Below, piece after piece: positions 4,606 to 54,749 of a stretch of 64,000 nt of DNA. Every line of letters starts with the position of its first letter. The stretch's first letter is position 1. Made by a program: the position numbers and the translations under genes. Source of the DNA: an uncultured Chloroflexia bacterium (lineage in GTDB: Bacteria > Chloroflexota > Dehalococcoidia > Dehalococcoidales > RBG-16-60-22); contig CAVUAO010000003.1 of the NCBI GenBank assembly GCA_963739515.1, forward strand, positions 912,387 through 976,386, read 5' to 3'. Below the pieces are notes generated by a model, which ran no database searches, had not been told where the DNA came from, and worked only from the letters and a program-made list of their open reading frames with translations.

Positions 4606-4623
4606 AAGCCCCTCCGTTGGACT

Positions 4624-4730
4624 GTCATTGCGAGCCATCCTTCCAAAGAAGGAGGCGCGGCAATCTCTATGTCATCCTGAACGTAGAGAAGGATCCGTTT
4701 TCTCCGTCATTCCAGCGCAGGCTGGAATCC
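4624..4730. repeat. cluster of three REP-like imperfect palindromic units
   Basis: GTCATTGCGAGC..(nested hairpin CCTTCCAAAGAAGG)..GGCAATC; TGTCATCCTGAACGTAGAGAAGGATCC; GTCATTCCAGCGCAGGCTGGAATCC. Related units occur inverted at 31491-31573. Confidence 0.8.
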
Positions 4731-6751: not shown

Positions 6752-6760
6752 ATGACTTTT

Positions 6761-7723: not shown

Positions 7724-7829
7724 AGCGATTCTCCACCGAATAACAAAATCCGGGATATACAGGGGCAGAGTGGCTAAACTGCTATCGAACAGCCACTCTG
7801 CCCTACCTGATCATTTCAATAACGGTTGA

Positions 7830-18824: not shown

Positions 18825-18836
18825 GGAGAGACGCAA

Positions 18837-19784: not shown

Positions 19785-19815
19785 TGAATCATTAGCTTTC
19801 AATCTGGAGTTGTCA

Positions 19816-23123: not shown

Positions 23124-23129
23124 CTATTC

Positions 23130-24068
23130 TTGATGTCGAGTATCACACACCGGTGGATGGGGCAGGGGAACACCGTCAAGCCGGACTATAACGTCTCCGA
23201 CCGCCTGGCGGGAGTGCTTGATATCACCCGGCCCATCCTTTCCGTCATGGGCGCTCTGGGCGTCGGGGCTGGAGCCGCCTTGGCCTACGGGGGCTTTCCG
23301 GCGTGGAACAAGTGCCTTATCGGCGTCATCGCCGCCCTGCTGGCTTTTGCCGGCATCCATGCTTTTAATGATTTCGTCGACCAGCGCCGGGACGTGGTCT
23401 GCTGGCCGGGCCGGCCGATACCCAGTAAACGGCTCACGCCGCGGCAGGGCCTGCTCCTGGCGGTGGTTTCTTTCGCCGGCGCCCTGGTTATTGTCTGGTT
23501 CGTCTTCAACACCGTGTGCTTCACTGTCTCCGCGGTGGCGGTCGGGTTAAGCTGCCTTTATTCCGGTTATTTGAGAGACCGGGTCGGCTATCTTATCCTT
23601 CCCCCCATCCAGGGACTGGGACTGGTCTGCGGTTGGACGGCCTTCGCACCGGCTACGCTGTTCAGTGCCTGGGCGCCCTGGGTCTTATGGGCGTTTTCCG
23701 CCACCTGGCAGGCCGGACACATCATGGTCTATTCTCCTTTACATCCTATCCGGCGGGTCAAAGGTGTTAAGCTTACGCAGGTGCCGGCTTTGTTCAAGAG
23801 GACTTCTCCGCAGACGGCAGCCGCGCTGGGTTTTGGATTTTTATGCCTGGCTGCCGTAGCAGGCATCTACCTGGGCTTCTATTTCCACCTGGGTCTCCTT
23901 TATTTATTGCCGACCGCCTTGATGGCCGTCCTAGCTTTAGTCTTTAGCTTCAAGTTTATGCGCGACTCGGAAAATTTCGCTAGGGGCATTAAGGCTTTTT
24001 ACTTCGCCACCTATTTCATGCTGGGGGCCCGTCTCTTGATACTGCTCAGCGTTTTCCTGTTCTATTAG
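23130..24068 (+). CDS. UbiA-family aromatic prenyltransferase
   Basis: NDFVDQRRD Asp-rich motif and about 8-9 TM helices. Confidence 0.8.
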   Translation: MMSSITHRWMGQGNTVKPDYNVSDRLAGVLDITRPILSVMGALGVGAGAALAYGGFPAWNKCLIGVIAALLAFAGIHAFNDFVDQRRDVVCWPGRPIPSKRLTPRQGLLLAVVSFAGALVIVWFVFNTVCFTVSAVAVGLSCLYSGYLRDRVGYLILPPIQGLGLVCGWTAFAPATLFSAWAPWVLWAFSATWQAGHIMVYSPLHPIRRVKGVKLTQVPALFKRTSPQTAAALGFGFLCLAAVAGIYLGFYFHLGLLYLLPTALMAVLALVFSFKFMRDSENFARGIKAFYFATYFMLGARLLILLSVFLFY

Positions 24069-24077
24069 GAGAATATT

Positions 24078-24752
24078 TTGGCACTGCGTGTCCCTCTCAA
24101 TGAAGAACAGTTTGCGGATACCGAATCCGCCCAATTTTACGATGAACATGCCCGGCGCTTCATGGGGTCGGTCTACCGCAGGTTTGCCGCGAGGGTGGCC
24201 GGCATCAGTCCCCCGGGAAAGCGGGTGCTGGACCTCGGTACCGGCAGCGGCCGCCTGGCAATCGCGCTGGCGAAAGACCACCCCGACTGGCAGATTACCG
24301 GCATCGATATTTCGGCAGAAATGCTGAAGCTGGCCGGGCAGAACGCCGCCAAAGACGGTTTAACCCATAAAATTGATTTTCGGCAGGCACCGGCGGCGGC
24401 GCTGCCCTTCCCCGACGGCTATTTTGCCCTGGTGGTCAGCAACAACTCGCTGCACCTCTGGGCGGAGCCCCTCAAGGTATTTGGAGAAATCGAGAGGGTG
24501 ACCTCGCCGGGGGGCTACTGTCTGATAAGGGACAATTTAAGAATCACCGTTCTTCATCTATTCATTAACTTGGCAGGTTGGGCGATGGGCATGAACGCCG
24601 CGCAGCGTCGACTCTGGATGCAGGCAATCCGTTCGTCTTATACCGGCGGAGAAGCCAGGGCAATTTTAAAGGAATCGGCCCTCAAAGACGCCCGCGTTAT
24701 GACCACGCGTTATTTTGAGTTGAGTATCGAGTGGCGAAAGTCACCGGACTAG
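24078..24752 (+). CDS. class I SAM-dependent methyltransferase (UbiE/COQ5-like)
   Basis: Motif I VLDLGTGSGRLAIALAK. It lies immediately downstream of the UbiA gene. TTG start as given in the track. Confidence 0.7.
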   Translation: MALRVPLNEEQFADTESAQFYDEHARRFMGSVYRRFAARVAGISPPGKRVLDLGTGSGRLAIALAKDHPDWQITGIDISAEMLKLAGQNAAKDGLTHKIDFRQAPAAALPFPDGYFALVVSNNSLHLWAEPLKVFGEIERVTSPGGYCLIRDNLRITVLHLFINLAGWAMGMNAAQRRLWMQAIRSSYTGGEARAILKESALKDARVMTTRYFELSIEWRKSPD

Positions 24753-24758
24753 AGAATA

Positions 24759-25703
24759 TTACCAGTCCGGCGGGCCCGGCGTGGTCTGCCGCTCGTAGAG
24801 TGGATTATAAGCTAATGTCCCCATCTTTTTGATAATATCGCGACGTTTCTCGTTCGGGGGCTCGTCCGGGATAGCCCGGATAAGCGCTTCATTACGGGCG
24901 ATATAGCCTTCCCTGAACTCGGGATGGGTGTGGATAAAGAGGTCGTTACGCCTGATGCCCCGCACCACCCGCTCGCCGGTTTCCACGGGGTCCATGAACA
25001 CGGAAAAATCGAACATCGGCCGCCGCATCGGCTGACCGTCTTTGGGGGGAGGGGGCGGTTGGGGCGGCCAGGTCTGCCCCTCGTTCCGGAGATGGGCGGG
25101 GCGGTTAGCGAAAGTGGATGGGCCCAGGTTAGTCATGGTCGGTCCGGGGATAAGCACCGAGGCCCCCACGTTAGTTCCCTGCAGGTCCCCCGCCAGCGTT
25201 TCCATCATGCCGGTGATGGCGTATTTGGTCATGTTGTATATAATGCAGCCGTTGACCGCGAAAAAGCCGGCTGTGGAAGAGGTGGCGACCACGTGGCCGC
25301 CTTCCCCGTGCTTTAAAATACGCGGGAGGATTATCACGAGTCCGTTGGCGACGCCGGTGATATTGACGCCGATGCTGAAATCCCAGTCCTTGAAGGTCAT
25401 GTTCCACGCCGGCCCGCCGGAAGCCACACCGGCGTTATTGACCAGCACGTGTATCTTCTTAAAAACAGCTTCCGCTTCGTCCGCGGCTTTGGTGTAGGCA
25501 GCGCGGTCGGTCACGTCCAGCTTAATCGGGTGGACGGACTGGCCGGTCTTTTTAAAAAAAGCCATCGTTTCGTCCAGGGCATCCTGGCGCGAGTCCGCGA
25601 TAACGACCTTCATGCCGTATTTGGCGCAGGCTTTGGCAATGCCCAGCCCGATGCCGCTGGCGCCGCCGGTAATAAAAGCTGTTTTTCCTTCAATATTCTC
25701 CAT
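24759..25703 (-). CDS. short-chain dehydrogenase/reductase with long C-terminal extension (paralogue 1)
   Basis: TAFITGGASGIGLGIA, NNAG and YNMTK motifs. The proline-rich stretch PPQPPPPPKDGQP is followed by a conserved tail ending PGPPDW. Confidence 0.85.
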   Translation of the reverse strand: MENIEGKTAFITGGASGIGLGIAKACAKYGMKVVIADSRQDALDETMAFFKKTGQSVHPIKLDVTDRAAYTKAADEAEAVFKKIHVLVNNAGVASGGPAWNMTFKDWDFSIGVNITGVANGLVIILPRILKHGEGGHVVATSSTAGFFAVNGCIIYNMTKYAITGMMETLAGDLQGTNVGASVLIPGPTMTNLGPSTFANRPAHLRNEGQTWPPQPPPPPKDGQPMRRPMFDFSVFMDPVETGERVVRGIRRNDLFIHTHPEFREGYIARNEALIRAIPDEPPNEKRRDIIKKMGTLAYNPLYERQTTPGPPDW

Positions 25704-25734
25704 GGTGCGTTTTTCTTACCTTTCTAGACTTGTT

Positions 25735-26691
25735 TTACCAGTCGGGCGGGCCTACCTTTTGCTGTTTATCATAAATGTCATTATAGATAATCGTCCCGAA
25801 AGTCTTGATGACCTCCCACCTTTTTTCATTCCGGGGTTCTTCCGGGATGGCCCGGATAATGGCCTCGTGACGCGCGATGTAGCCTTCCCGCCACTCGGGG
25901 TGGGTGTGGATGTAGAGGTCATTGTTCCGGATGCCCCGCACCACCCGCTCGCCGGTCTCGTCCGGGTTCATGAACACCTGCCTGACCTCCTCGATCGGCC
26001 GTCGCGGCCGGTCTCTCATGCCCGGCGGTGGATTGGCGGGCATTTTCGGCGGCCAGGTGTCTCCCGGGTTTCTCAGGTGGGCGGGGCGGTTCTCAAAGGA
26101 TGACTGGCCCAGATTGGAAACCGTCGGCCCGGGGAACAGTATCGAGACCCCGATGTTCTTGTCCTGGAGCTCGGTAGCGAGGCATTCCATCATGCCGATG
26201 ACCGCGTACTTGCCCGTGCAGTAGATGGTAAAGCCGAGCGAGCCCATCAGGCCGCACGTCGAGGAGGTGGTGACGACGTGGCCGCCTTCGCCGTGCTTAA
26301 TAATGCGCGGCACAATCGTCATGATGCCGTTCACCACGCCGCCGACGTTAACGCTCAGGCTGTAGTCCCAGTCCTTATAGTCCAGGTTATCAATCGTGCC
26401 GCCGGGCGTGCCTACGCCGGCGTTATTGACCAGCACGTGTATCTTCCCGAACATTTTCTCCGCTTCATCGGCGGCTTTGACGTATGCCTCGCGGTCGGTC
26501 ACGTTCAGCTTTAAAGGTCGGACTGACTTCTCCTTGCCTTTGAAATAAGCCATCGCTTCATCGAGGGCGTTCTGCCGCGCATCGACGATAATCACTTTCA
26601 TGCCCTGCCTGGCGCACGCCTTGGCGATGCCCAGCCCGATGCCGCTGGCGCCGCCCGTGATAAAAGCCACTTTGCCTTTTAAGTCCTTCAT
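25735..26691 (-). CDS. short-chain dehydrogenase/reductase with long C-terminal extension (paralogue 2)
   Basis: VAFITGGASGIGLGIA, NNAG and YCTGK motifs. It has the same tail ending VGPPDW and is a tandem paralogue of 24759-25703. Confidence 0.85.
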   Translation of the reverse strand: MKDLKGKVAFITGGASGIGLGIAKACARQGMKVIIVDARQNALDEAMAYFKGKEKSVRPLKLNVTDREAYVKAADEAEKMFGKIHVLVNNAGVGTPGGTIDNLDYKDWDYSLSVNVGGVVNGIMTIVPRIIKHGEGGHVVTTSSTCGLMGSLGFTIYCTGKYAVIGMMECLATELQDKNIGVSILFPGPTVSNLGQSSFENRPAHLRNPGDTWPPKMPANPPPGMRDRPRRPIEEVRQVFMNPDETGERVVRGIRNNDLYIHTHPEWREGYIARHEAIIRAIPEEPRNEKRWEVIKTFGTIIYNDIYDKQQKVGPPDW

Positions 26692-26719
26692 GCGTCTCCC
26701 TCTTCTCTATGTATTATCG

Positions 26720-28411
26720 CTAATGGCCGATGCCGCAGGAGCCGTCTTTACAGACGATCGCTTCCGGCATGCGCAGCGGCTTCGCATCGAGTTTGATGCC
26801 GGCTTTGGGTATCCAGGGGTCGATGGGGACGGACTGGAAATAAGCGAAATCGGTCGTGACCCACATGGGGTTCATTTCACCGCCGACGACGATAAAGTTG
26901 ACTCCCTCCGGCCGCTTGAAACGGAAATTCGCCTCGTTCACGAGCCACTCGCTGAGCTTGAGCGGGTCATCCCAGCCTTCCCTTTTCAGGCTCTTGGCGA
27001 CGAGGGGGTCGATAACGAAGGTAAACGAGCCGCCGAAAGGACCGCCGATATTTTTCATTACTTCCAGCATCCGCTGGAGCGGGCCGGTGTTGAAGCCGAG
27101 GACGTTCCAGCCCCGGAAAAGGCTCACGACGTTTTCGCCCGCCTTGAAGCCCTTGCGCACGTGGAAAGGCGGCCAGACGCTGTTCTCTTCGTTCTCGGCG
27201 AAGCACATGTTGTTGTAGTTGATGGTCGTTCCGGTGCTGGCGGTGAACGTTGCCCCCGGCCGGACGTCCCCGAAGTTAATGCTCATCAGCGTCCAGGCCC
27301 GGCCGATAACGGCATTGGCGTAGTTGATGGGGCTCAGGGCGCCCAGTCCGCCGTTCATGCCGATGATATTGCGGATGGGGCCGTTCACCACCATCATGCT
27401 CGCAAAGGAGGTAGTCGAGCTGGGCATGGAAGGTCGCCCCGAGGCGCCTAATGCCAGGAGAACCGGGAGGTGCTCCGGCCGGCAGCCGGCCATGACGGCG
27501 ATAGCGGCGACCCTTTCCACCGTATACTGGAGTCGCTCTTCGTGAGTGGTTACGGACATCATGCCGACGTACTCATCGGGTTTGCGGTCGGTGCCGGTGA
27601 GCATCTCGGCCACGCGCTCTTCGGTGGGCAGGATGATCGGCAGGCCGTCCGTCCAGCCTTTTTCCAGGAAAAGCCGGTGCAGGCTAGCTTCGGTATCCGG
27701 CTCGAGGAGGCGCGGTCGGGTCGGTCGCTTTACCGGTTTGTAGTTCTTCTCCTCGACCGTCAGTGGCTGGGTGAGGGCAAAAAGAACCTCATCCATGAGG
27801 GGCGCGCCGGAAACGGGGTCGTTGCCCTCGACATAGCCGTAAAGTATTTCCTTGGGAATAAAGCCGACGGGGTAGGGAGGGAAGCTCCAGCGCAGGTTCA
27901 TGCCGTGGCTGCGTCCGTCCCGCTGGACATAGTCCGCGAAGCGCGCGGTGACGATGGGGGCCGTCGGCACGCCGTAATCGCTTTCCATGGTCCGGGCGAA
28001 CTCGGCGATACTCGCCGAACAGCCGTCTCAGCCGCCCACGCCGAAGACAACGGCGTCACCGTTTTTCTTGATTTCCGCCCAGAGCTCGGGTTCGTCGGTG
28101 AACATGCTGGACTTCTTGTGGCGCAGCACCGTCTTGATGTCCGGCCGGTGGCGGGCAAACCAGCCCTCGACCTCTTCCATGAACTCTTTACCGCCGGCGA
28201 ACCCCGTGTTAACCAGGTAAACGGTCTTGCCTTGCAGTTTATCGAGGCGCGGCGCCATCTTCAGGGCGCCCAATGCCTCGGCGGTGTCCCTCGGCTGGTA
28301 TGTCGGGTCATGAATCGCGAACATCGGCGAATCGGCATCGAGACGCCGCCCGAAAATGCCGGTGGGCTGACCGCCCGGGTCGAGCACCGCTATTTTTCCG
28401 TTCTTTTTCAT
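26720..28411 (-). CDS. candidate selenoprotein: UxxC redox domain fused to an uncharacterised ~350-aa domain, read through TGA 28028-28030
   Basis: Track ORFs 28028-28411 and 26720-27988 share strand and frame and are separated by a single TGA. The junction reads ...VVFGVGG-U-DGCSASIAEFARTMESDYGVPT. There is no SD before ATG 27988. A SECIS-like hairpin lies 9 nt after the TGA. Confidence 0.6.
28002..28018 (-). promoter_or_regulatory. SECIS-like stem-loop downstream of in-frame UGA
   Basis: The mRNA has UCGGCGA-GUA-UCGCCGA, a perfect 7-bp stem. It can be extended by G-U pairs and GGC/GCC. The apical loop starts with G, 16 nt after the UGA. Confidence 0.5.
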
Positions 28412-28598
28412 ATCTTTCCCCTTTCGATATGTCGTAATATACCGTATTTCTCATATCATAAGATAAAATAAGTGCCCAGTTCAAGTTGATATTACCAAAG
28501 TTTTTGGCCCGACTTGCGCGGCAGGCTCGATTAACTCTAATATATTTATGGGTGCGTTAATTCACCGTAAAAAGAGCCAACAGGAAGGATTTGCGCGC

Positions 28599-29810
28599 AT
28601 GAATACGGGAGCACTTGACGGCTTAAAGGTCCTGGAGTTCAGCGATTTTATTTCCGGGCCATATGGCGGCAAAATGCTGGCCGACCTTGGTGCCGGGGTC
28701 ATCAAGATAGAGAAGCCCGTCTCCGGCGATAAAGCCAGGCAATGGGGGCCTTTCCCGGGGAATATACCGCACCCGGAGAAGAGCGGCCTCTTTCTCTTTT
28801 TGAACGCGAACAAGCGGGGGATTACCCTGAACGTTGCCGGCGGGCCGGGACGGGAGATATTCCGTCGACTGGCCGGTTGGGCGGACGTGCTTATCGAAAG
28901 TCAGCCGCGCCGGGAAATGGCAAAAATAGGGTTAACCTACCCGACTTTGAAAAAGTTGAACCCTTCTCTGATTATGACCTCCATATCCCCGTTCGGGGAG
29001 ACGGGTCCCTATAAAGACTATAAAGGCTCCGACCTGATTAACTCCCATATGAGCAGCGAGGCATTCGGCAACCCGACGGAGGGTGTGAATGACCTGGAGC
29101 GTTATTACCCGCTGCGGGGGCCGATGCAGGCCGCCGATTTCATGACCGGCCTGACCGCGGCGGTGTGCACCATGTCCGCGATAGTAGGGCGGCGAAAAAA
29201 TAAGGTCGGCCGGCATATCGACATCTCCGCCCAGGAAGCGCTGGCCTCGGTGGAACGGCAGGAACTCGCCTTCTGCCTGTGCGAGGGGCTTTGCCCCACC
29301 CGGCAGGTGGGCCGGAAGCGCGTCGGCGGGTTTTTATACCAGTGTAAAGACGGCTACGTCTGCATCTGGATCGGGCCGCACTGGCAGAAACTCGTGACGA
29401 TGATGGGCAAACCGGACTGGACGGAGGCCGAGCTCTTCAAGAATCCGGCCCTGCGCTCCGAGCACCAGCAGGACTGTAATAAGCTTATCGAGCTGTGGAC
29501 GATGCAATACACAATGGATGAAATCGATCGTCTCGGCATGGAATTCGATGTGCCTCTAGCGCCGGTGCGTACCGTGAAAGAGGTCGCCAACGACGTGCAG
29601 CTAGCCTACCGCAACTATTTTGCCGAGATCGACCACCCGGTGGCCGGGCGGCTCAAATACCCCGGCGCGCCTTACAAGCTGTCGGCGACGCCCTGGGAGG
29701 TCAAGCGCCCCGCCCCGCTGCTGGGCGAGCATAATGACGAAGTGTATGGCCAGATTCTTGGATACAGTCGGAAGGATATAGCAGGACTTAAACAGGCGGG
29801 CATAATATAA
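28599..29810 (+). CDS. family III CoA-transferase subunit (CaiB/BaiF/BbsE-F-like)
   Basis: LKVLEFSDFISGPYGGKMLADLGAGVIKIEKP. Start set at ATG 28599 (MNTGALDG) after AGGAAGGA. Confidence 0.85.
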   Translation: MNTGALDGLKVLEFSDFISGPYGGKMLADLGAGVIKIEKPVSGDKARQWGPFPGNIPHPEKSGLFLFLNANKRGITLNVAGGPGREIFRRLAGWADVLIESQPRREMAKIGLTYPTLKKLNPSLIMTSISPFGETGPYKDYKGSDLINSHMSSEAFGNPTEGVNDLERYYPLRGPMQAADFMTGLTAAVCTMSAIVGRRKNKVGRHIDISAQEALASVERQELAFCLCEGLCPTRQVGRKRVGGFLYQCKDGYVCIWIGPHWQKLVTMMGKPDWTEAELFKNPALRSEHQQDCNKLIELWTMQYTMDEIDRLGMEFDVPLAPVRTVKEVANDVQLAYRNYFAEIDHPVAGRLKYPGAPYKLSATPWEVKRPAPLLGEHNDEVYGQILGYSRKDIAGLKQAGII

Positions 29811-29834
29811 AGGGAAAAATCGGAGAGAATTATC

Positions 29835-31055
29835 ATGCATAAATTACCTCTGGCGGGTATCAGGATTACGGATTTCGGGCAGATGTGGGCCGGGCCTCAC
29901 CTTTCGCAGTGGCTGGCGGTCATGGGGGCGGAAGTCATTAAAGTGGAAACCCACCTGAGGATAGATTTTATGAGGATGATCGGCATTCCGCCGGGACTGA
30001 GGAGGGACGATTTCAACGCGGGGACGGCTTTCGCTTCGCTGAACTACGGTAAAAAGAGCGTTACCCTGAACATGAACGAGCCGAGGGCGCAGGAGCTTGC
30101 CAAAAAAATGGTAAAAATAAGCGACGTTGTCACGGAGAATTTCGGCGGGAATATTCTCGAGCGTTGGGGGCTGGGTTACGAGGAGATGAAAAAAATAAAG
30201 CCGGATATTATCTACTATGCCGGCTCGGGCTACGGGCGGAGCGGGCCTCATCAGTCGCGGCCGTCTTACGCGGAAATCGTGGAGGCATACGACGGCTCGA
30301 CGTATCTGAATGGCTACCCCGGCGGCGGGCCGGCGACGGTCGGGGTGTCCCCCTGGACGGACGCCACCCAGGCGATGCACGGCGCCTTTGCGATTATGGC
30401 GGCGCTATATCATCGCGACCTGACCGGGGAGGGACAATATATCGACGCCGCCATGATTGAGGGGAGCAGCAACTTCCTCGGCGAGGTGGTGATGGGCTAC
30501 GCGATGAACGGCGCCCTGGGAGAGCGGATGGGCAATCGAGATAAGTTCATGGCGCCGCACGGCTGCTATCGCTGCCAGGGAAACGACGCGTGGGTCGCCA
30601 TCGCGGTGGACGGCGAGGCGGCCTGGCAGGCTTTCGTCAAAGCCATCGGCAGCCCGGAATGGACTCAAAGAAAAGAGTTCAAAAACGAGGTAAGTCGACG
30701 GCAAAACCAGGATGAGCTTGACCGGCTCGTGGAAGAATGGACGCGCGAACATCACCAGTATGAGGTCATGGAGCTGCTGCAAAAAGCGGGGGTGGCGGCC
30801 GGGGCTTCGCTGAATATCAAAGACCTCGTCAGCGACCCGCAGCTCAAGGCGCGGCAGTTCTTTGTCGAGACGGAACACCCGGTGCTGGGGAACATCACCC
30901 TGGCGGGTCTGCCCTGGAGGCCGGAAGGCCGGCAAAAAGGCAATTATACCTGCCCGCCGCTGCTCGGGGAGCATAACGACTATGTCTTCGGGGAGCTGCT
31001 GGGCTTGAGCGCTGAAGAAATCGCCAGTCTTAAAGAAGCGAAGGTAATTTACTAG
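29835..31055 (+). CDS. family III CoA-transferase subunit (second, divergent partner)
   Basis: IRITDFGQMWAGPHLSQWLAVMGAEVIKVET. It starts 25 nt after the first subunit. Confidence 0.85.
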   Translation: MHKLPLAGIRITDFGQMWAGPHLSQWLAVMGAEVIKVETHLRIDFMRMIGIPPGLRRDDFNAGTAFASLNYGKKSVTLNMNEPRAQELAKKMVKISDVVTENFGGNILERWGLGYEEMKKIKPDIIYYAGSGYGRSGPHQSRPSYAEIVEAYDGSTYLNGYPGGGPATVGVSPWTDATQAMHGAFAIMAALYHRDLTGEGQYIDAAMIEGSSNFLGEVVMGYAMNGALGERMGNRDKFMAPHGCYRCQGNDAWVAIAVDGEAAWQAFVKAIGSPEWTQRKEFKNEVSRRQNQDELDRLVEEWTREHHQYEVMELLQKAGVAAGASLNIKDLVSDPQLKARQFFVETEHPVLGNITLAGLPWRPEGRQKGNYTCPPLLGEHNDYVFGELLGLSAEEIASLKEAKVIY

Positions 31056-31080
31056 CGGCGGGCGATTTCTTTGCTTAGAC

Positions 31081-31264
31081 ATTCGTTTATTCGTTTTTTA
31101 AATATTTTATTTTTCGATTTCGTAGCTAATTTACGAGATTTTGTAGCTGGTATTCGTTTTTATTATATGTTAAGTTAGCTTCAAAAGACGGGGTATTCGT
31201 TTTTCGATTTATGTTAAACCCAGCTATGAAATCCAGGTATTCGTTTTTTAATTTATGGTAAGTT
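31081..31264 (-). repeat. inverted partner array of 43-44-bp-periodic repeats (core AAAAACGAAT on the minus strand)
   Basis: ATTCGTTTTT at 31089, 31152, 31195 and 31239, plus a half copy at 31081-31087. Spacings are 63, 43 and 44 bp. Units align with the 4901-5067 array when reverse-complemented. Confidence 0.8.
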
Positions 31265-31347
31265 AATTTTTTATTTAGTGTTTTCGCGTAACAGTATATA
31301 AGAAGCGGAGGAGAATAGATAGATAGAGGATTTTGTCCGGGGAGTTT

Positions 31348-31375
31348 AAGAGGGGTTACAACCCCTCTTTTTTTA
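31348..31375 (+). terminator. rho-independent terminator-like hairpin
   Basis: AAGAGGGG-TTACAA-CCCCTCTT followed by a T-run. Confidence 0.6.
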
Positions 31376-31376
31376 T

Positions 31377-31432
31377 CCCCTCTCCAGCCATATATTATAT
31401 CGGTTTAAGTAATATTTAGGGCTGGAGAGGGG
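31377..31432. repeat. 13-bp inverted repeat with 30-nt AT-rich loop
   Basis: CCCCTCTCCAGCC (31377-31389) and GGCTGGAGAGGGG (31420-31432). Confidence 0.75.
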
Positions 31433-31490
31433 ATTAAGGGGTGAGGTTGAAAAATGACCTATGTGCTCAAAGATGCGGCGGGCATGCAGT

Positions 31491-31573
31491 GATTCTCACG
31501 TCGTCCTTCCAAAGGAAGGACTCCTCAGAATGACAAAGAAGGGAACGGATTCTTCGCTGCGCTCAGAATGACA
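31491..31573. repeat. two REP-like palindromic units (inverted relatives of 4624-4730)
   Basis: Reverse complements read GTCATTCTGAGGAG-TCCTTCCTTTGGAAGGA-CGACGTGAGAATC and TGTCATTCTGAGCGCAGCGAAGAATCC. Confidence 0.8.
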
Positions 31574-31592
31574 GGATGGAAACAACGGCGTT

Positions 31593-32444
31593 CTAAATCA
31601 TGTCCCGGGCAATCAGGGCGGCGCCGATAGCTCCTGCCAGCATGGGGTCGAACTCGCTGGTGAGGGCCGTCATCTTCATCTCTCTTTCGATGCGTTTCAC
31701 GATGCCGGGATTCTTCGCCAGGCCGCCGGTGAAGGCGATTTCCTTTTCCGGCAATATCCGGCCGATAGTGCCGTGAAGCCTCCAGGCGATGGTGAAAAGG
31801 TAGGCCGCCAGCACCTGGCTCTCCGTGTAGCCCTCCCGGAACAGCCCCATAGCCTCGGTATTGGCGAAGGCGTAGCAGGTGGTGCTCACCGGTTCCGGGT
31901 CTTTTTCCACCGTCAGCGACCTGGCGCCCATCTCCTGGATCGGCACCTGCATGAGGTCGGCCATGGTCTCGATGCTGCGTCCAAAGCCGTCGGCGCATTT
32001 ATCGTTCATCTGGAAGTCGCGTATCCTGTCCCAGCCGTACAGGCGGATAACTTTGCAGGTCTGCGCGCCCAGGTCGACCACCGTCCTGATAGAAGGCCCG
32101 AACATCAAGCGGGCGCCCCGCGCGTGGCAGCTGATTTCGTCGACGGTTTTACCGGCGAAAGAGATATTGCGGCTGCCCCAGCCGGTGCCCGCGATAGACT
32201 TAATGTCTTTGAGCTTCATCCCGGACTTCCCCAGCGCCCGCCTCACCGCTTCATCGGCGTTTTTGCTGTAGTCCGGCCCGTTACGGAGGCTGGCATAGCC
32301 GAACAATTTGTCATCACATAAGATGGCCGCTTGAGTGCTGTTGCTGCCCACGTCCACACCCGCGGTAATGTTTTTACATTTCTTCCAGTCGATATCCGTA
32401 GCCGTCCCGGCGGACTCCGGCCATTGCCAATATTCCTCTGTCAT
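31593..32444 (-). CDS. BadF/BadG/BcrA/BcrD-type ATPase subunit (BcrA/BzdQ-like)
   Basis: ITAGVDVGSNSTQAAIL...DLGAQTCKVI...NDKCADGFGRSIE acetate/sugar-kinase-fold ATPase with the Fe-S bridging Cys context. Confidence 0.8.
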   Translation of the reverse strand: MTEEYWQWPESAGTATDIDWKKCKNITAGVDVGSNSTQAAILCDDKLFGYASLRNGPDYSKNADEAVRRALGKSGMKLKDIKSIAGTGWGSRNISFAGKTVDEISCHARGARLMFGPSIRTVVDLGAQTCKVIRLYGWDRIRDFQMNDKCADGFGRSIETMADLMQVPIQEMGARSLTVEKDPEPVSTTCYAFANTEAMGLFREGYTESQVLAAYLFTIAWRLHGTIGRILPEKEIAFTGGLAKNPGIVKRIEREMKMTALTSEFDPMLAGAIGAALIARDMI

Positions 32445-32475
32445 TTGTTTGCCTCCAGCAGTAGTTCTTCGAACC

Positions 32476-33267
32476 TTAGCCCGCCGCTATCCCTTCGACT
32501 TCGCTCAGGGCAAGCAGGGCGGCGCCCAGCGCCCCGGCGTACTCCGCCTGCTCGGGAACCAGGAAAGCCACCCCCGACCGTTTCTTCAACGCATTGACCA
32601 CCGCCTGGTTCCGGCACAAGCCGCCGACCAGCACCGTGGCGTTTTTATCGGGATTAAATTTATCGTGGAGAATCGAGTTAAGCCGGACGGCTACCGCTTC
32701 GGCTACCGCCCGGGCGATATCTCCCCGGGGGACATTGCGGTTCAAAAGCCCGATGGCGTCCATCTCGGCGAAAACGCTGCAGCCGTCATTGACCAGCACC
32801 TCGCCGTTGCCGGAGACGCGGCCCATCTCTTCCAGCGTCATCCCCAGCGTCCGCGCCATGGACTTAAGCAGGATGCCCAGTCCGGCGGCGCATTTCTGGT
32901 TCATGACCACTTCCGTGATTTTGTCCTGCGGCCCCAGGGCCACGACGCGCACCTGGTCGGCGCCGGCGTCCATGACGCAGGTGGCTTCAGGATACAGGAA
33001 CCGGGCCGCCCGGGCGTCCGCCACAGGTTCAACAACGCGGTCGCGGGCAAAGCTGACGTCGGCCTTGCCCTGCCCGGTCGCGACGATATTATCGATATCG
33101 GAGGGAGTCAGTTTGGCCGCCGCCAGCGCCTTCTTCCAGGCCTGCTCGGCGGACTTCGCCCGGTTCGCCCCTCCCGATAATGCCGTCCCCCGGCCGACGA
33201 CTTTACCGTCCTTCAAAATCACCGCTTTAACGTTTTCTATCCCTACATCTATGCCGGCCGTGATCAT
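32476..33267 (-). CDS. BadF/BadG/BcrA/BcrD-type ATPase subunit (BcrD/BzdP/HgdC-like)
   Basis: MITAGIDVGIENVKAVIL...DAGADQVRVV...NQKCAAGLGILLK. Confidence 0.8.
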   Translation of the reverse strand: MITAGIDVGIENVKAVILKDGKVVGRGTALSGGANRAKSAEQAWKKALAAAKLTPSDIDNIVATGQGKADVSFARDRVVEPVADARAARFLYPEATCVMDAGADQVRVVALGPQDKITEVVMNQKCAAGLGILLKSMARTLGMTLEEMGRVSGNGEVLVNDGCSVFAEMDAIGLLNRNVPRGDIARAVAEAVAVRLNSILHDKFNPDKNATVLVGGLCRNQAVVNALKKRSGVAFLVPEQAEYAGALGAALLALSEVEGIAAG

Positions 33268-33276
33268 ATCAGCCTC

Positions 33277-34602
33277 CTAGTCCTCAAGTTTCCTCAAGCC
33301 CTGGCTCTCCATCCAGACATCGAGCTGGTCCAGCAGGCGGTTTTCATCGAGGTCGGTGCGGTCGCCGGGCTGGGAACCTTCGTAATGCAGGACGCGCACG
33401 CCCATCTTGCTCAAGCGCAAGCCCTGCTCCTTGCGGGTCACCGTGCAGCCCACGCCGCAGCGCCATAAAGGCAGGATAGCCCCGTCCACTTTATAGGCTT
33501 TGGCGAAGTCGTCAAGCGCCCAGGGACGGATGACCTCGTCATCCTTGAATCGGTGGCCCCGCGCTTCAGTACCGATCATCATGCGGATGGCATCTTCCCT
33601 TGTCTTGATAGGTCGATTGTCTACCGCCCTCCCCCCGAAACCGCCGCCGCGGAAACGCGGACCCCAGGTGCCGTCCTTTTTAAGCTCGAAAGGACCGGCC
33701 ATCATGTGACTGTACTGCGAGCCGACACAGACCGCCCCGTATTTCTCCATATAGCGGTAGTATTTCAGGAAGTGCCAGGGCGGCGGGTGGGTCTCCATCC
33801 AGCGGTACCTTTCATTGCCCACCGCGGCGATGTTATTCTGCACGCGCCACTCCACCTCGTCCCGCAACGCTTTCCAGATAGCCACCGTTTCGCCGGGGTC
33901 GCCCTTGGTGAGACCGCCGAGCGTGTAAAAGGAGTAGAGGTCCTTCTGGCTCAAGGGGGAGGGGATGTGCTGCATGAAACGGGAGACATCCTGCGCGTAC
34001 GGCGCAATGCCCCCGCTGATTTTCACGCTGTTGATGAACCTTTCGTCGTCGAACTTTTGCCCGAAAATCCTTTCGATTTCGGAGATGATATATAGAGTCG
34101 TATAGACCTTGTCCTCGATCATCGCTTTTTCACGGTCGACGTCCTGCGGGCCGGTGTAAAGAGCGTAGTTCTCCTGGAAGCGGGGGATAGGGGAATAGTC
34201 CATGGGCGCCTGGCCGCGTTTGGTATGCTGGTCGCACGGGTCCGAGAAAGGAATGACCAGGTCGCGGAACGGGAAAGGACTGCCGTCCTGCTGGTGCCCC
34301 AGGTACATGGCGCCCCAGCAGTTGAGCTGATAACCGCAGACTTCCCGCCCCCACCCCACGATCTCGCTATAGTACCGGGCGATGCGGGCAAACTCATCGC
34401 TCTTATTCGCCATCATCGCGCCCACGGGGTTATCCTCGATGACGCGCAGTGCTGGAAAGCCGATGCTCCACCCGACGTTGCCCTGTGCCAGCAGCACTTT
34501 TTCCGAGGAAGCGCTATCAATAGATTTCTGCCACTTCGCTCTCATTTCCTTGGCTTTGTTCCAGACTTCCAGGGGCCTGGTTTCCCATTTTGTTTTAGCC
34601 AT
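33277..34602 (-). CDS. benzoyl-CoA reductase / 2-hydroxyacyl-CoA dehydratase family catalytic subunit (BcrB/BzdO-like)
   Basis: 441 aa, starting MAKTKWETRPLEVWNKAKEMRAKW. Its size and its position second in a four-gene C-B-ATPase-ATPase arrangement fit this call. Confidence 0.7.
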   Translation of the reverse strand: MAKTKWETRPLEVWNKAKEMRAKWQKSIDSASSEKVLLAQGNVGWSIGFPALRVIEDNPVGAMMANKSDEFARIARYYSEIVGWGREVCGYQLNCWGAMYLGHQQDGSPFPFRDLVIPFSDPCDQHTKRGQAPMDYSPIPRFQENYALYTGPQDVDREKAMIEDKVYTTLYIISEIERIFGQKFDDERFINSVKISGGIAPYAQDVSRFMQHIPSPLSQKDLYSFYTLGGLTKGDPGETVAIWKALRDEVEWRVQNNIAAVGNERYRWMETHPPPWHFLKYYRYMEKYGAVCVGSQYSHMMAGPFELKKDGTWGPRFRGGGFGGRAVDNRPIKTREDAIRMMIGTEARGHRFKDDEVIRPWALDDFAKAYKVDGAILPLWRCGVGCTVTRKEQGLRLSKMGVRVLHYEGSQPGDRTDLDENRLLDQLDVWMESQGLRKLED

Positions 34603-34614
34603 AAGTGCCTCCGT

Positions 34615-35745
34615 TTATTTCAGCACCAGCTCCGGTTTCAGCATATTGATAAAGGCCTCCAGGCGCAGGCGGGTTTCTTCATACGGAAGGGTGGTATCGC
34701 GTTCAAAGTAATGGAAAGGGATGTTGCGCTCCCGGAGGATTTTCCAGATGAGCGTATTGTCCGAACCGTGAGGGTGGCAGTAAATCTGCTTGGCGATAAT
34801 GACGCCGTGAGCCTGGTAATCCTCATAAAGCTGGTAAATGTGGGCGGGACGCCGCCGCCAGTTATTGTCTTTCAGGGCGCAGTGGGGGCGGCCCAGGTAA
34901 CGCAGGGAAATAGCCATGAGGCGGTCGGGCTGGGGGATGACCTCGTTCCAGAAGTAGCAGCTGCCCGTGCAGACCTCGTCGATGACGACGTTTGCCCCCA
35001 GCTCTTCAACGAGTTTCTCCAGCGCTACGTCGGACGTGGGACTCCCGATAAGCATCAGGCGGACACCGGTATCGCGCCGGGGCTTCCGCGCCGCCAGTCC
35101 GGCGATAACATCTTTCAAAAGCTCGTTCATCTCGGCCTTGTCCATCACCTGGCTGGCCAGGACCATCTCCATCGCTTCCGAACCGAGGAGGACGGGACTA
35201 TCCGCCCGGCGCAGCTCGTAGACCTGGCGCATCAGGCGGCGGTTTTCGTTATAGATTTCTATGGCGCGGTCGAGGTCAGCGTCCGTAATAGGCTTGCCCG
35301 TCCATTTTTCCACCGCTTTTTTAAAGACATCCAGCTCCGAACGCATCAAATCCTTGGAAGTTTTCCCGTCAACGTAATCGGGGACGAAGACATAATGGTT
35401 AAATAACTCCGGCTGGCTGTTCAAAGTGGTCTGGAAGGCGTTGAGCATCCATTGACAGCCCTCGGCATTAATCAGTCCGTCGATATAATCGTAATGACCT
35501 TTAAGGAACTGGTTGAGGATATCACGCGAGCAGGCGCAGTTGCCGTACATCTGGCGGTCGGTGGCGTCATCCGGTTCATGCCGGCTCAAAAGGCGCACCG
35601 GTAGGGCGCCGGCGGCATAGACGATTTCCTCGGGCATGTAGGGCTCGTAATAGCCCAGGACTTTGCCGCCGGTCCGTTTTTTCCAGTCGCGCGCGTACTC
35701 ATGGCGGCCCTGTAAAATTTCGTGAAATCTTTCCAATTTCTTCAC
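34615..35745 (-). CDS. benzoyl-CoA reductase / 2-hydroxyacyl-CoA dehydratase family catalytic subunit (BcrC/BzdN/HgdB-like)
   Basis: ...WKKRTGGKVLGYYEPYMPEEIVYAAGALPVRL is typical of this family. The start is uncertain: the GTG at 35745 overlaps GGAGG, and the TTG at 35736 is better spaced. Confidence 0.75.
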   Translation of the reverse strand: MKKLERFHEILQGRHEYARDWKKRTGGKVLGYYEPYMPEEIVYAAGALPVRLLSRHEPDDATDRQMYGNCACSRDILNQFLKGHYDYIDGLINAEGCQWMLNAFQTTLNSQPELFNHYVFVPDYVDGKTSKDLMRSELDVFKKAVEKWTGKPITDADLDRAIEIYNENRRLMRQVYELRRADSPVLLGSEAMEMVLASQVMDKAEMNELLKDVIAGLAARKPRRDTGVRLMLIGSPTSDVALEKLVEELGANVVIDEVCTGSCYFWNEVIPQPDRLMAISLRYLGRPHCALKDNNWRRRPAHIYQLYEDYQAHGVIIAKQIYCHPHGSDNTLIWKILRERNIPFHYFERDTTLPYEETRLRLEAFINMLKPELVLK

Positions 35746-35949: not shown

Positions 35950-36732
35950 ATGCCAAGAGCATTCTGGAAAGGCGTCATCAGCTTCGGACTGGTAGCCATA
36001 CCGGTCAAAATGTACGTGGGGACCGAGACCCAAGTGCTGAATTTTCATCTGCTGCATAAAAGTTGTCTCACCCGGCCCAGACAGGTACTGCACTGCGAGA
36101 GGGACAACGAATACTTCGGGATTAAAGACACGGTGCGGGGCTATGAGGTCGCTAAAGACCAATACGTCGTCCTGAACGAAAAAGATTTCGACAAAGTGCC
36201 GGTCAAGACCACTCACGCCATCGACATTCTCGGCTTCGTCGACGAGAAAGAAATCGACCCGCTTTACTATTACGGCGTCCATTACCTCGAGCCGGAGGAG
36301 GTCGGCGTCAAGCCGTTCAATCTTTTAAAGGAAGCGCTGGTAAAAACGGGACGGGTCGGCATCGGGAAGGTCACTTTCCAGCGGAAGGAACATCTCAGCT
36401 GCCTGAGGCCCCTGGAGGACATTATCCTGCTCCACACGATGCGCTATCAAAACGAGATAATTTCCCGGAAAGAGCTCACCGTCCCGAAAACCAAAGCGGC
36501 CGAAGCCGAGCTCAACATGGCCGTCTCGTTGGTCAAAGCCATGGCCAGGAGCTTTAAGCCGGAAGAGTATAAAGACGAATATCGGGAAGCCCTGAAAAAG
36601 GTCGTGGATGCCAAGGTAAAAGGCGAAAAGATAGTCGCGCCTCCCGCGCCCAAAGCGGAAGTCGGCGACCTCATGGCGGCGCTGCGCGCCAGCATCAATG
36701 CCGCCAAAAAGGAACCGGTCGGTGTGAGGTAA
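35950..36732 (+). CDS. ku: Ku DNA-end-binding protein (NHEJ)
   Basis: MPRAFWKGVISFGLVAIPVKMY canonical bacterial Ku N-terminus. A GGAGG RBS is present. Confidence 0.9.
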   Translation: MPRAFWKGVISFGLVAIPVKMYVGTETQVLNFHLLHKSCLTRPRQVLHCERDNEYFGIKDTVRGYEVAKDQYVVLNEKDFDKVPVKTTHAIDILGFVDEKEIDPLYYYGVHYLEPEEVGVKPFNLLKEALVKTGRVGIGKVTFQRKEHLSCLRPLEDIILLHTMRYQNEIISRKELTVPKTKAAEAELNMAVSLVKAMARSFKPEEYKDEYREALKKVVDAKVKGEKIVAPPAPKAEVGDLMAALRASINAAKKEPVGVR

Positions 36733-36799
36733 GTCACGGCAGGATTTCCGATTTTCAGACTATAATTGCAATCGAGTCTTTAAATTATAGCAATAAATT

Positions 36800-37402
36800 A
36801 TGGGCAGCGAACTCGAAAAGTACCGGGAGAAACGCGATTTCCAGCGCACCCCGGAGCCGCCTCCCGAAAAGGGGGCGAAGCTGGGGCCGCTGACGTTTGT
36901 CGTCCAGAAACACCGCGCGCGGAACCTCCACTATGATTTCCGTCTCGAGCTCGATGGCGTTTTAAAATCCTGGTCGGTGCCCAAGGGACCGTCTTTAAAT
37001 CCCGCAGATAAACACCTGGCCGTCATGGTGGAAGACCATCCGCTGGAATACGCCTCCTTCGAGGGGAATATCCCCAAAGGCGAATACGGCGCGGGTGAAG
37101 TCATCGTCTGGGACAGCGGCACCTATTCTCCCGACGAGGGCGGCCAATTTCTTTTCAGCGACCGGCCCGCCGCCGAAAAACAGATGAGGAGCGGCCTGGA
37201 AAAAGGCAAGCTCTCGTTCTTCCTGAGGGGCCACAAGCTCAGAGGCTCCTGGACGCTGGTGAAAATGCAAAAGAGGCCCAACGACTGGCTCCTGATGAAG
37301 CACCTTGACGATTATGCCAGCCCCGACAGGGACATCCTGGAAGAAGAACAGTCCGTGATTTCGGGTCGCAAGGTGGAAGATGTCCGCGAAAAAGGTGCCT
37401 GA
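36800..37402 (+). CDS. ligD: LigD 3'-phosphoesterase (PE) domain as a stand-alone ORF
   Basis: FVVQKHRARNLHYDFRLELDGVLKSWSVPKGPS signature. Confidence 0.85.
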   Translation: MGSELEKYREKRDFQRTPEPPPEKGAKLGPLTFVVQKHRARNLHYDFRLELDGVLKSWSVPKGPSLNPADKHLAVMVEDHPLEYASFEGNIPKGEYGAGEVIVWDSGTYSPDEGGQFLFSDRPAAEKQMRSGLEKGKLSFFLRGHKLRGSWTLVKMQKRPNDWLLMKHLDDYASPDRDILEEEQSVISGRKVEDVREKGA

Positions 37403-54716: not shown

Positions 54717-54749
54717 ATTTAGCTACATGAGACTGTGAAGGGGGACAAT

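Follow-up and report, generated by a model that had tools for sequence, protein, structure and literature searches.

A Nine-Gene Cluster of an Uncultured Dehalococcoidales Bacterium Joins a Bzd-Like Four-Subunit Reductase with a BbsEF-Like CoA-Transferase, Lig-Type Dehydrogenases and a UGSC-Family Selenoprotein

Organization of the Locus

The window analyzed here, a 64-kb stretch of contig CAVUAO010000003.1 from an uncultured bacterium of the Dehalococcoidales, carries at 24759-35745 a module of nine genes that brings together a four-subunit enzyme of the benzoyl-CoA reductase/2-hydroxyacyl-CoA dehydratase (BCR/HAD) superfamily with subunits N, O, P and Q (NOPQ), a family-III CoA-transferase of two subunits (CoAT_A and CoAT_B), two short-chain dehydrogenases/reductases (SDR1 and SDR2) and a selenoprotein of the UGSC family. 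Positions are coordinates of the 64-kb window throughout, and L-numbers (L001 and so on) denote homologous loci from other genomes. Gene calls were judged by Pfam and NCBIfam profiles, with the NCBIfam equivalog cut-offs applied for orthologue status. The genes form three units, with SDR1, SDR2 and the UGSC gene on the minus strand, the two CoA-transferase genes on the plus strand and Q, P, O and N again on the minus strand (Table 1); Pfam and the coordinates confirm the nine genes, their strands, the three units and the N-O-P-Q order proposed in an earlier reading made from the letters and open reading frames (ORFs) of this DNA (the sequence-only reading). Pfam E-values for all module genes range from 1e-9 to 1e-105, and because these values are negligible and the arrangement is found again in other genomes, the module lies beyond chance.

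Table 1. Features of the nine-gene module and its intergenic regions, in window coordinates
Feature	Position	Strand	Properties and basis
SDR1	24759-25703	-	314 aa; adh_short 154 bits; LigO/LigL/LigD subfamily, NAD-type classical SDR
SDR2	25735-26691	-	318 aa; adh_short 164 bits; SDR1 paralogue, catalytic residues intact
UGSC-family selenoprotein	26720-28411	-	564-codon frame; PF24696 37 bits (cut-off 25), N-terminal 127 aa
In-frame TGA read as selenocysteine	28028-28030	-	TGA and both protein flanks kept in orthologues
SECIS-like (selenocysteine insertion sequence-like) hairpin, core UUCGGCGA-GUA-UCGCCGA[A/G]	27993-28025	-	RNAalifold, 7 orthologues
Divergent intergenic region, UGSC-SDR versus CoA-transferase unit	28412-28598	.	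gene coordinates; 187 bp
CoAT_A, Asp-bearing family-III subunit (GSD)	28599-29810	+	PF02515 310 bits
CoAT_B, Asp-less family-III subunit (SYAE)	29835-31055	+	PF02515 354 bits
Terminator-like hairpin with T-run, convergent gap	31348-31369	+	sequence scan
Q-like ATPase (BcrAD_BadFG)	31593-32444	-	PF01869 141 bits; NCBIfam BzdQ 286 bits
P-like ATPase (BcrAD_BadFG)	32476-33267	-	PF01869 133 bits; NCBIfam acyl-CoA dehydratase activase domain 158 bits
O-like catalytic subunit, substrate and [4Fe-4S] site	33277-34602	-	PF06050 66 bits; BzdO-like
N-like subunit, electron-transfer cluster	34615-35745	-	PF06050 235 bits; BzdN-like

Comparison with the L005 orthologue favors the CoAT_A start chosen in that reading over the first ATG at 28548. 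The intergenic region between the two divergent units probably serves both as a common control region and contains a promoter-like match at 28484-28455 (minus strand); a promoter scan of this region returned 9 sites against 5.8 +/- 2.4 in shuffles, an enrichment that is not clear, and because the count is so close to that of the shuffles, promoter matches were not used as evidence. The convergent gap holds no small ORF of note. As had been claimed, no ferredoxin, enoyl-CoA hydratase or ring hydrolase gene is seen in the module. Among the ORFs annotated in the rest of the window there is likewise no enoyl-CoA hydratase and no ring hydrolase, with several Fe-S proteins lying elsewhere, and neither a bzdM-type ferredoxin nor dch, had or oah was found among the annotated ORFs of the 64 kb.

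The Four-Subunit Reductase

The N and O subunits both belong to PF06050 and are followed by two different BcrAD_BadFG ATPases, P and Q, which are 32% identical to each other. NCBIfam ranks its Bzd models first, all of them below cut-off (BzdN 288 against 454 bits, BzdO 175 against 449, BzdQ 286 against 380), which leaves the N and O scores 36-61% under the equivalog thresholds, and the models for Thauera-type Bcr, HadBC and double-cubane proteins score far lower than the Bzd models. Matching to solved structures gives the same ranking: the N-like subunit reaches 279 bits with BzdN (8s02_B), 117 with HadC, 104 with MbdN and 66 with the double-cubane cluster protein (DCCP), and the O-like subunit 172 bits with BzdO (8s02_A) and 42 with HadB, with no match to Mbd or DCCP. 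Identities are 40% to BzdN and 32% to BzdO. A genome scan with BzdO returned 80 canonical bzd loci, only of the Betaproteobacteria type, and against these the N, O, P and Q subunits are at most 40, 33, 38 and 47% identical, respectively. Conversely, 38 homologues of the window's enzyme fetched from genomes are all 29-33% identical to BzdO, and since they are equally far from it, the pattern is the one expected of a sister clade. This clade is large, with the best 120 clusters at 90% identity all at least 63% identical to the N-like subunit.

Residues of the active site were assigned from the BzdNO crystal structures (PMC11971306). In BzdO, Tyr97 and Tyr298 bind the thioester and Trp46 packs the ring, Cys95, Cys128 and Cys380 ligate the [4Fe-4S] cluster, and Glu65 and His131 form the acid/base pair at the water-bearing iron (PMC11971306). 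The O-like subunit retains the equivalents of Cys95, Cys128, His131, Trp46, Tyr97 and Tyr298. At the column of Glu65 it carries Asn, inside an EDNP motif that is invariant in the clade (38/38 members), and at that of Cys380 it has Gly, with a Cys three residues on in WRxGVGC that is equally invariant (38/38); the canonical signatures are LTGEP and NRGCEGLS, each invariant in 80/80 bzd loci. A carboxylate one or two residues before the EDNP Asn could replace Glu65. In the N-like subunit, five of the six BzdN ligands of the [8Fe-9S] cluster are kept (Cys73, Cys100, Cys263, Cys293 and Cys327), the sixth, Cys36, is Glu clade-wide, and there are two extra Cys, at 75' and 267'. Each ATPase has two cluster Cys (KCADG and TCYAFA in Q-like, KCAAG and GCSVFA in P-like), in apparent agreement with the number expected for a cluster bridging P and Q.

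On these comparisons NOPQ is assigned as a Bzd-type ATP-dependent low-potential reductase with a modified active site. We read it as a reductase rather than a dehydratase because its two ATPases differ from each other and because five of the six [8Fe-9S] ligands and the Tyr97, Tyr298 and Trp46 equivalents are retained, and the preference for a Bzd-type set over a 2-hydroxyacyl-CoA dehydratase in the sequence-only reading is upheld. It is, by the same sequence criteria, not a benzoyl-CoA reductase orthologue and belongs to a populous clade of its own, closest to BzdNOPQ, because its scores stay below cut-off and because EDNP and GVGC are fixed in this clade where LTGEP and GCEGLS are fixed in canonical loci; the possibility raised earlier that the subunits would fall inside a characterized clade is not borne out. 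These changes at the active site point to another substrate or another regiochemistry.

Among described systems, BzdNOPQ of strain CIB (8S02, 8S1T, 8S2R; PMC11971306) shares the N-O-P-Q order and the two PF06050 and two BcrAD subunits and is the best match for the window's N, O and Q, whereas the window's enzyme has EDNP for TGEP, GVGC for GCEG and Glu for Cys36, and its partners are a CoA-transferase instead of a ligase, SDRs and a selenoprotein, with ferredoxin and dch, had and oah not nearby. The thn cluster (tetrahydronaphthoyl-CoA reductase), compared by description and not by sequence, shows that a Bzd-like, ATP-dependent reductase can have an aryl-CoA other than benzoyl-CoA as its substrate, and it holds dehydrogenases and other CoA-ester enzymes beside the reductase; unlike the window's module, it also has hydratases, a thiolase and acyl-CoA dehydrogenases, with ferredoxin and old yellow enzyme genes nearby. 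HadBC/HadI/HadA (3O3M) and FldABC/FldI belong to the same superfamily and have a family-III CoA-transferase gene beside the radical enzyme, but they use one homodimeric activator and one [4Fe-4S] cluster per subunit where the window has two ATPases and a multi-Cys N-like subunit, and HadB and HadC score much lower with the window's O and N (42 and 117 bits). A literature search for a described function of the Firmicutes/Dehalococcoidia reductase clade gave nothing usable.

Two further observations concern this clade. Its Firmicutes branch, from gut and termite sources (L013, L015-L020, L023, L026, L028, L030), has the gene order Q-N-O-P, and in its N subunit Cys263 is replaced by Asp and Cys293 by Asn or Ser, residues that the Dehalococcoidales branch retains; this suggests a single-cubane, dehydratase-like state within the same clade. 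One Dehalococcoidales metagenome-assembled genome (MAG) carries three paralogous NOPQ sets (L012, L014, L022), each with different neighbors, namely a xanthine-dehydrogenase-type Mo enzyme, a CoA-transferase pair with a URO-D-family gene, and a membrane molybdoenzyme, and such triplication in one genome points to substrate diversification.

The CoA-Transferase Pair

Both CoA-transferase subunits carry PF02515 and they are 29% identical to each other, in line with the two divergent family-III subunits previously proposed. CoAT_A finds its best solved match in 9fn0_A (168 bits) and CoAT_B in 9fn0_B (221 bits). At the column of the catalytic Asp, CoAT_A and its orthologues have G(S/G/C)D and 9fn0_A has GSD, while CoAT_B and its orthologues have SYAE and 9fn0_B has GYG; because the Asp column is filled in A alone, we conclude that the pair is a genuine heteromer whose active sites are all of one type. 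In these respects, two different adjacent family-III subunits that match chains A and B in turn, with the Asp in one, the pair resembles the benzylsuccinate CoA-transferase BbsEF (9FN0), from which it differs in being only 33-34% identical and in having no bbs beta-oxidation partners (BbsG, H, CD, AB). Neither subunit reaches an NCBIfam equivalog, and we class the pair by sequence as BbsEF-like. Elsewhere in the window, at 2140-4638 (minus strand), the two-subunit arrangement appears in fused form, as a single polypeptide of 832 aa with a pair of family-III CoA-transferase domains (557 bits), and further separate A/B-type pairs are present in L003, L004 and L035.

The Lig-Type Dehydrogenases

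SDR1 and SDR2 are 64% identical and have as best solved relatives 4YA6 (219 and 216 bits, respectively), 4YAE (190 and 193) and 4Y98 (152 and 170), with the next non-Lig structures scoring at most 165 bits. These three entries are LigO, LigL and LigD (PMC4858972), which use NAD to dehydrogenate benzylic (C-alpha) alcohols in the lignin beta-aryl-ether pathway. SDR1 has TGGASGIG, Asp37 and S..YxxxK, and both proteins show the NAD-type fingerprint and an intact S-Y-K triad; we accordingly assign them, as a sequence-level placement, to the LigO/LigL/LigD subfamily, their closest relatives among solved structures. The proline-rich stretch (WPPQPPPPPK) that had been described as a C-terminal extension in fact lies inside the protein, near residue 200, and is followed by a C-terminal extension shared with Lig-type SDRs. 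An R- versus S-specific assignment of the two proteins was tried and dropped, both ranking LigO over LigL over LigD, and a role like that of BbsCD was rejected, the catalytic residues being intact in both SDRs and BbsCD not being among the solved relatives at E < 1e-25.

The Lig pathway of Sphingobium sp. SYK-6 (LigD/L/N/O, the glutathione S-transferase (GST) etherases LigE/F/P and the lyase LigG; PMC4858972) shares with the window the SDR architecture, the NAD motifs, the side-by-side paralogues and an SDR partner with a thiol/selenol redox center. The window differs in that its host is an anaerobe and the partner is a UGSC selenoprotein for which a homologue model gave no convincing fold match; no GST-family etherase or lyase is present among the ORFs annotated in the 64-kb window.

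The UGSC Selenoprotein

The UGSC gene is a single frame whose sole interruption is the TGA at 28028-28030, which gives the motif GVGG-U-DGC in the N-terminal alpha/beta UGSC domain. This TGA, with protein kept on both sides, is conserved in seven orthologues (window, L001, L003, L004, L005, L036 and L039). In the same seven, RNAalifold predicts a hairpin of 13 pairs that starts 8-13 nt past the UGA, in which pairing survives the changes UA>UG and GC>GU and a compensatory exchange affects one pair (CG<>AU); a fold of the single sequence after the UGA is no better than shuffles (z = -0.2). Rfam and tRNA scans of the window gave no tRNA-Sec or other relevant RNA, and selenocysteine (Sec) machinery was not seen in the window. 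The conserved TGA and SECIS-like hairpin substantiate the candidate UxxC selenoprotein of the sequence-only reading, and the protein is assigned on these signals as a real selenoprotein of the known UGSC family.

That family was predicted to be a thioredoxin-like-fold selenoprotein, with fusion to an unknown domain noted in ocean metagenomes, and is uncharacterized (PMC2398784, PMC13188914). Here the motif is UDGC, placed after a beta-strand of the PF24696 domain, and the fused C-terminal part is a conserved domain of about 420 aa with more than 3,800 representatives at 50% clustering. Homologues that span the full length, about 550 aa, carry either Cys or Sec and bear the name "UGSC family (seleno)protein". 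The C-terminal domain has no Pfam model and no sequence match in the PDB. An AF2 model of a 47%-identical Cys homologue has a pLDDT of 85, and a PDB fold search with this homologue model found nothing better than E = 2e-3 and TM <=0.18, the matches being generic flavodoxin- or Rossmann-like ones to the N-terminal domain only. The window's protein agrees with the family (PF24696, NF041046; PMC2398784, PMC13188914) in its U-x-x-C after a beta-strand, its fusion to a conserved domain and the ~550-aa architecture of thousands of homologues; it departs from it in having UDGC in place of UGSC or USTC, and Lig-type SDRs in place of a thioredoxin-reductase-like flavoprotein as partners.

A scan for the UGSC fusion with one genome per species gave 80 loci (L050-L129), overwhelmingly of selenoproteins (103 in-frame TGA at the motif). 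Motif subfamilies U-D/E-G-C, U-P-G-C and U/C-S-T-C track different partner genes. A LigO-like SDR is present in 15 of the 80 loci, in 12 of them within 300 bp, spread over Chloroflexota, Bacillota, Acidobacteriota and Thermodesulfobacteriota and often in tandem copies; no other gene is found nearly so often beside the UDGC and UPGC subfamilies (26 ORFs in 12/22 loci), the next being tannase/feruloyl esterase and then Opp-type ABC transporters. The C/U-STC subfamily adjoins a thioredoxin-reductase-like flavoprotein, which argues that the U/C-x-x-C center cycles between reduced and oxidized states. Tannase/feruloyl esterase genes (PF07519) lie within 3.5 kb of UGSC and SDR in L053, L059, L064 and L067, all Desulfobacteraceae and Acidobacteriaceae MAGs, and peat and soil Acidobacteriota have up to four or five tandem UGSC copies. 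At L005, 9173-10849 (minus strand), a second UGSC paralogue (34% identical) sits between the CoA-transferase and the main UGSC gene, its frame interrupted once past the N-terminal domain.

Conservation and Modularity

In close relatives with enough sequence, the CoA-transferase pair adjoins NOPQ at 9 of 11 loci, and the UGSC+SDR unit is also there at 6 of 9. At least five GTDB species and one metagenome contig retain all parts of the module at 10-30% protein divergence, and the question of neighborhood conservation posed in the sequence-only reading is thus answered by six related loci with the full set, one of which, L003, is rearranged, with the UGSC-SDR block relocated upstream of N and still within the cluster. 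The CoA-transferase, SDR and UGSC partners occur at none of the 80 canonical bzd loci; among the 80 loci of the UGSC fusion scan, a CoA-transferase was seen at only one and NOPQ at none. Other reductase loci have different company: L008 has acetone/acetophenone-carboxylase-like genes and URO-D in place of UGSC-SDR and the CoA-transferase, and L040 and L046 are without UGSC-SDR. At L011 (8331-8763) the first ~80 UGSC codons run into the last ~67 SDR1 codons directly upstream of an intact NOPQ, a deletion remnant. Because UGSC-SDR recurs alone in at least four phyla, because the reductase pairs otherwise in L008, L040 and L046, and because of the L011 deletion, the module is composite: it is a lineage-specific union of two separable units, CoA-transferase with NOPQ and UGSC with SDR. 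The earlier idea of one module holds for the close relatives, where the set is conserved, and fails as a statement about the parts, UGSC-SDR being autonomous across phyla.

Flanking Genes and Substrate Context

The genes flanking the module are unrelated to it. Directly upstream, at 18063-24752 (plus strand), lie a membrane molybdoenzyme set (Fe-S subunit, NrfD, catalytic subunit and cytochrome b) and then a UbiA prenyltransferase and a methyltransferase; downstream, at 35950-39512 (plus strand), Ku and a split LigD (phosphoesterase, then ligase-polymerase) make up a non-homologous end-joining set. In L022 (2157-6500) paralogous NOPQ is likewise preceded by NrfD, a Mo subunit and an Fe-S subunit 55% identical to that of the window; beyond this single parallel nothing supported the molybdoenzyme or Ku/LigD as parts of the module, and both were left out of it. 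Farther off, 51372-59052 (plus strand) encodes an HdrA-like 1114-aa flavo-iron-sulfur protein, HdrB/C-like proteins (Fer4_17, CCG) and the small and large subunits of a [NiFe]-hydrogenase. Speculatively, this set, 15 kb away, might use H2 to yield reduced ferredoxin by bifurcation and also act as a disulfide reductase; the ferredoxin could then feed the NOPQ reductase, and a tie to the selenoprotein is equally conjectural. An acyl-CoA dehydrogenase at 43625-44950 (minus strand) has cyclohexane-1-carbonyl-CoA dehydrogenase as best NCBIfam match at 111 bits, far under the cut-off of 650; a similar acyl-CoA dehydrogenase adjoins UGSC+SDR in L049.

Several gene families recur around members of the reductase clade. 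They include CoA ligases or transferases and TRAP, MFS and Opp transporters, and individual loci add a xanthine-dehydrogenase-family molybdoenzyme, the family of 4-hydroxybenzoyl-CoA reductase (L044), carboxylase genes of the aryl-ketone type with URO-D (L008), a ferredoxin with URO-D and MarR (L046), and, in a termite-gut Clostridiales (L037), a DAPG/phloretin-hydrolase family gene with a TRAP transporter, CoA ligase and CoA-transferase. Members of the URO-D family, ~420-460 aa long, turn up repeatedly in the neighborhood of the NOPQ clade and of UGSC genes (L007, L008, L009, L011, L014, L038, L040, L046, L047-L049), and the window has one at 40459-41799 (minus strand); in L047 and L048 the URO-D gene stands beside that of a B12-binding corrinoid protein, one such pair being next to a UGSC gene, a grouping also seen in the methyltransferase systems of O-demethylases. 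At 5840-9377 (minus strand) the window encodes a possible uptake system, an ABC transporter of the Opp type (SBP_bac_5 and two permeases), and such sets recur near the NOPQ clade and UGSC genes in L008, L046, L055, L061 and L062.

The window's relatives are uncultured Dehalococcoidales and Dehalococcoidia from peat, soil and aquifer sediment, the sources of the close members of the reductase clade, while distant members come from termite and mouse gut. Anoxic lignin amendment stimulates uncultured Dehalococcoidia, whose route into lignin is unknown (PMC10116835). Given the recurring neighbor genes and this lignin response, plant-derived aromatics appear the most likely substrate class. To this extent the claim that substrate and electron donor are not deducible needs revision, the substrate class having been narrowed; for the donor it stands.

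Interpretation and Alternatives

The sequence-only reading, correct as to the kind of system, did not recognize the combination from described pathways. The parts of the combination can now be named, being BbsEF-like, LigO/L/D-like and of the published UGSC family, and by the sequence comparisons above the reductase clade lies outside the characterized ones. With confidence that stands about even, we interpret the locus as a catabolic cluster for a plant-derived aromatic carboxylic acid of the lignin or polyphenol type in a strictly anaerobic, Dehalococcoidia-type host, combining activation by CoA transfer, ATP-coupled aryl-CoA reduction and a selenol/NAD benzylic unit. In the order of steps that we infer, CoAT_A and CoAT_B, with A catalytic via its Asp and B as Asp-less partner, would transfer CoA from a donor to the free acid, forming its thioester with no ATP spent. 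The thioester would dock in the O-like subunit beside the [4Fe-4S] cluster, whose likely ligands are the equivalents of Cys95 and Cys128 and the GVGC Cys, with the His131 equivalent present. An external low-potential donor, not encoded in the module, would pass electrons into the cluster bridging the P/Q ATPase heterodimer, and ATP hydrolysis would push them to the multi-Cys cluster of the N-like subunit and then to the substrate. The expected outcome is an ATP-coupled two-electron reduction of an aryl-CoA, probably a benzoyl-CoA analogue rather than benzoyl-CoA. SDR1 and SDR2 would interconvert a secondary, probably benzylic, alcohol and its ketone, perhaps with one enzyme per stereoisomer, and the U-x-x-C center of the selenoprotein may carry out a reductive step on the carbonyl compound formed by the SDRs. 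The UGSC-SDR unit would then process a precursor or side chain of the substrate of CoA-transferase and NOPQ.

Several points weigh against this interpretation. A substrate has been demonstrated for none of the nine proteins. A ferredoxin and the hydratase, dehydrogenase and hydrolase that would follow the reduction are absent from the module, with none among the ORFs annotated in the 64-kb window. With Asn at the column of the proton donor Glu65 and Glu in place of one [8Fe-9S] ligand, Birch-type dearomatization is not assured. The two units are linked only within a single Dehalococcoidales lineage, and L011 has lost the link. The aromatic theme, finally, is built on recurrent neighbors with Pfam-level names only, and many other functions are known both for URO-D-family proteins and for ABC transporters of the Opp type.

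If NOPQ were simply a lineage-diverged BzdNOPQ of the central benzoyl-CoA pathway, with the other pathway genes elsewhere in the genome and the present neighbors peripheral or unrelated, the best family and structure matches to BzdN, BzdO and BzdQ and the N-O-P-Q order would follow directly, and such a view has precedent in Dehalococcoidia reported to have canonical-looking bzdNOPQ with a full benzoate pathway (PMC5736913) and in the rise of bcr genes with lignin amendment (PMC10116835). We nevertheless consider it unlikely, given N and O scores 36-61% under the cut-offs at 32-40% identity, active-site motifs fixed differently in each clade with Glu for Cys36 in N, the lack of a bzdM-type ferredoxin and dch, had and oah among the ORFs annotated in the 64 kb, and the substrate diversification to which the three paralogous NOPQ sets of one MAG point. 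Quite unlikely, in our estimate, is a radical enzyme of the 2-hydroxyacyl-CoA dehydratase kind, in which a heterodimeric activator and the CoA-transferase would serve a non-redox, electron-recycling dehydration or elimination and the SDRs would make the hydroxy acid from an oxo acid. In FldA/HadA systems a family-III CoA-transferase gene typically lies alongside, as it does here, the PF06050 and PF01869 domains are those of the shared BCR/HAD superfamily, Glu65 is not conserved at its own column, and in the Firmicutes branch the loss of the Cys263 and Cys293 ligands resembles the HAD-like single cluster, with one locus of that branch (L038) beside a 2-hydroxyacid dehydrogenase and a LarA-type racemase. 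The window's own N-like subunit, however, keeps five of the six double-cubane ligands and adds two Cys, its ATPases are encoded by two different genes instead of one for a homodimeric activator, its scores favor BzdO over HadB (172 against 42 bits) and BzdN over HadC (279 against 117), and its SDRs are of the Lig-type benzylic alcohol dehydrogenase kind and not D-2-hydroxyacid dehydrogenases.

The remaining alternatives concern the relation between the two units. UGSC-SDR might be a glutathione- and oxygen-independent counterpart of the sphingomonad beta-etherase route, its products being activated by the CoA-transferase and reduced by NOPQ, a proposal to which we give a small chance. The SDRs would oxidize a C-alpha alcohol, the selenol would attack the adjacent carbon and expel an aryloxy or other group, and the resolving Cys would free the ketone as an Se-S bond forms, which, on the same low estimate, would amount to reductive cleavage of, for example, the beta-aryl ether of lignin fragments by chemistry like that of glycine and proline reductases or of LigE/F/G. 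This proposal would account for the LigO/L/D affinity of the SDRs, for their pairing with UGSC across phyla, often in multiple tandem copies, and for the tannase/feruloyl esterase neighbors and the peat and soil habitats; the thioredoxin-reductase-like partner in the sister subfamily would mirror glutathione reductase, and the mechanism of anaerobic lignin cleavage is acknowledged to be unknown (PMC10116835). Set against this, the case is purely circumstantial, with ~45% similarity to Lig-type SDRs not fixing the substrate, substrate binding being without residue-level or structural support, the fused domain having no structural relative, and several members of the wider family lacking the redox motif. 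That the three units are unrelated neighbors brought together by chance in one lineage is, finally, very improbable: 79 of the 80 UGSC fusion loci are indeed without NOPQ or the CoA-transferase, NOPQ occurs without these partners in L008, L046 and more distant loci, and L011 has lost UGSC-SDR, but the full set persists in at least five GTDB species and one metagenome contig despite 10-30% divergence, its parts stay together through the L003 rearrangement, and two of the units diverge from a shared 187-bp intergenic region.

Significance

The NOPQ enzymes described here form a separate, populous clade of Bzd-like radical enzymes in peat, soil and aquifer Dehalococcoidia and in termite- and mouse-gut Firmicutes, which metagenome surveys now tally as "benzoyl-CoA reductase" or "2-hydroxyacyl-CoA dehydratase". 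With the double-cubane ligands present in one branch and lost from the other, the clade may preserve the transition from reductase to dehydratase that has been proposed for the superfamily. The UGSC family, which ranks with the most abundant selenoprotein families of aquatic metagenomes and has stayed uncharacterized since its first report, gains a concrete genomic context, with an obligatory-looking Lig-type dehydrogenase in one subfamily and a thioredoxin-reductase-like flavoprotein in another, and since partner genes have been found, its function becomes directly testable. The locus also bears on the oxygen-free processing of lignin-derived aromatics, an open question in which Dehalococcoidia have been implicated experimentally. 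Should the improbable etherase proposal for UGSC-SDR prove true, its coupling to the aryl-CoA reductase clade through the BbsEF-like CoA-transferase would equip strict anaerobes to take lignin-type dimers all the way to reduced ring products.

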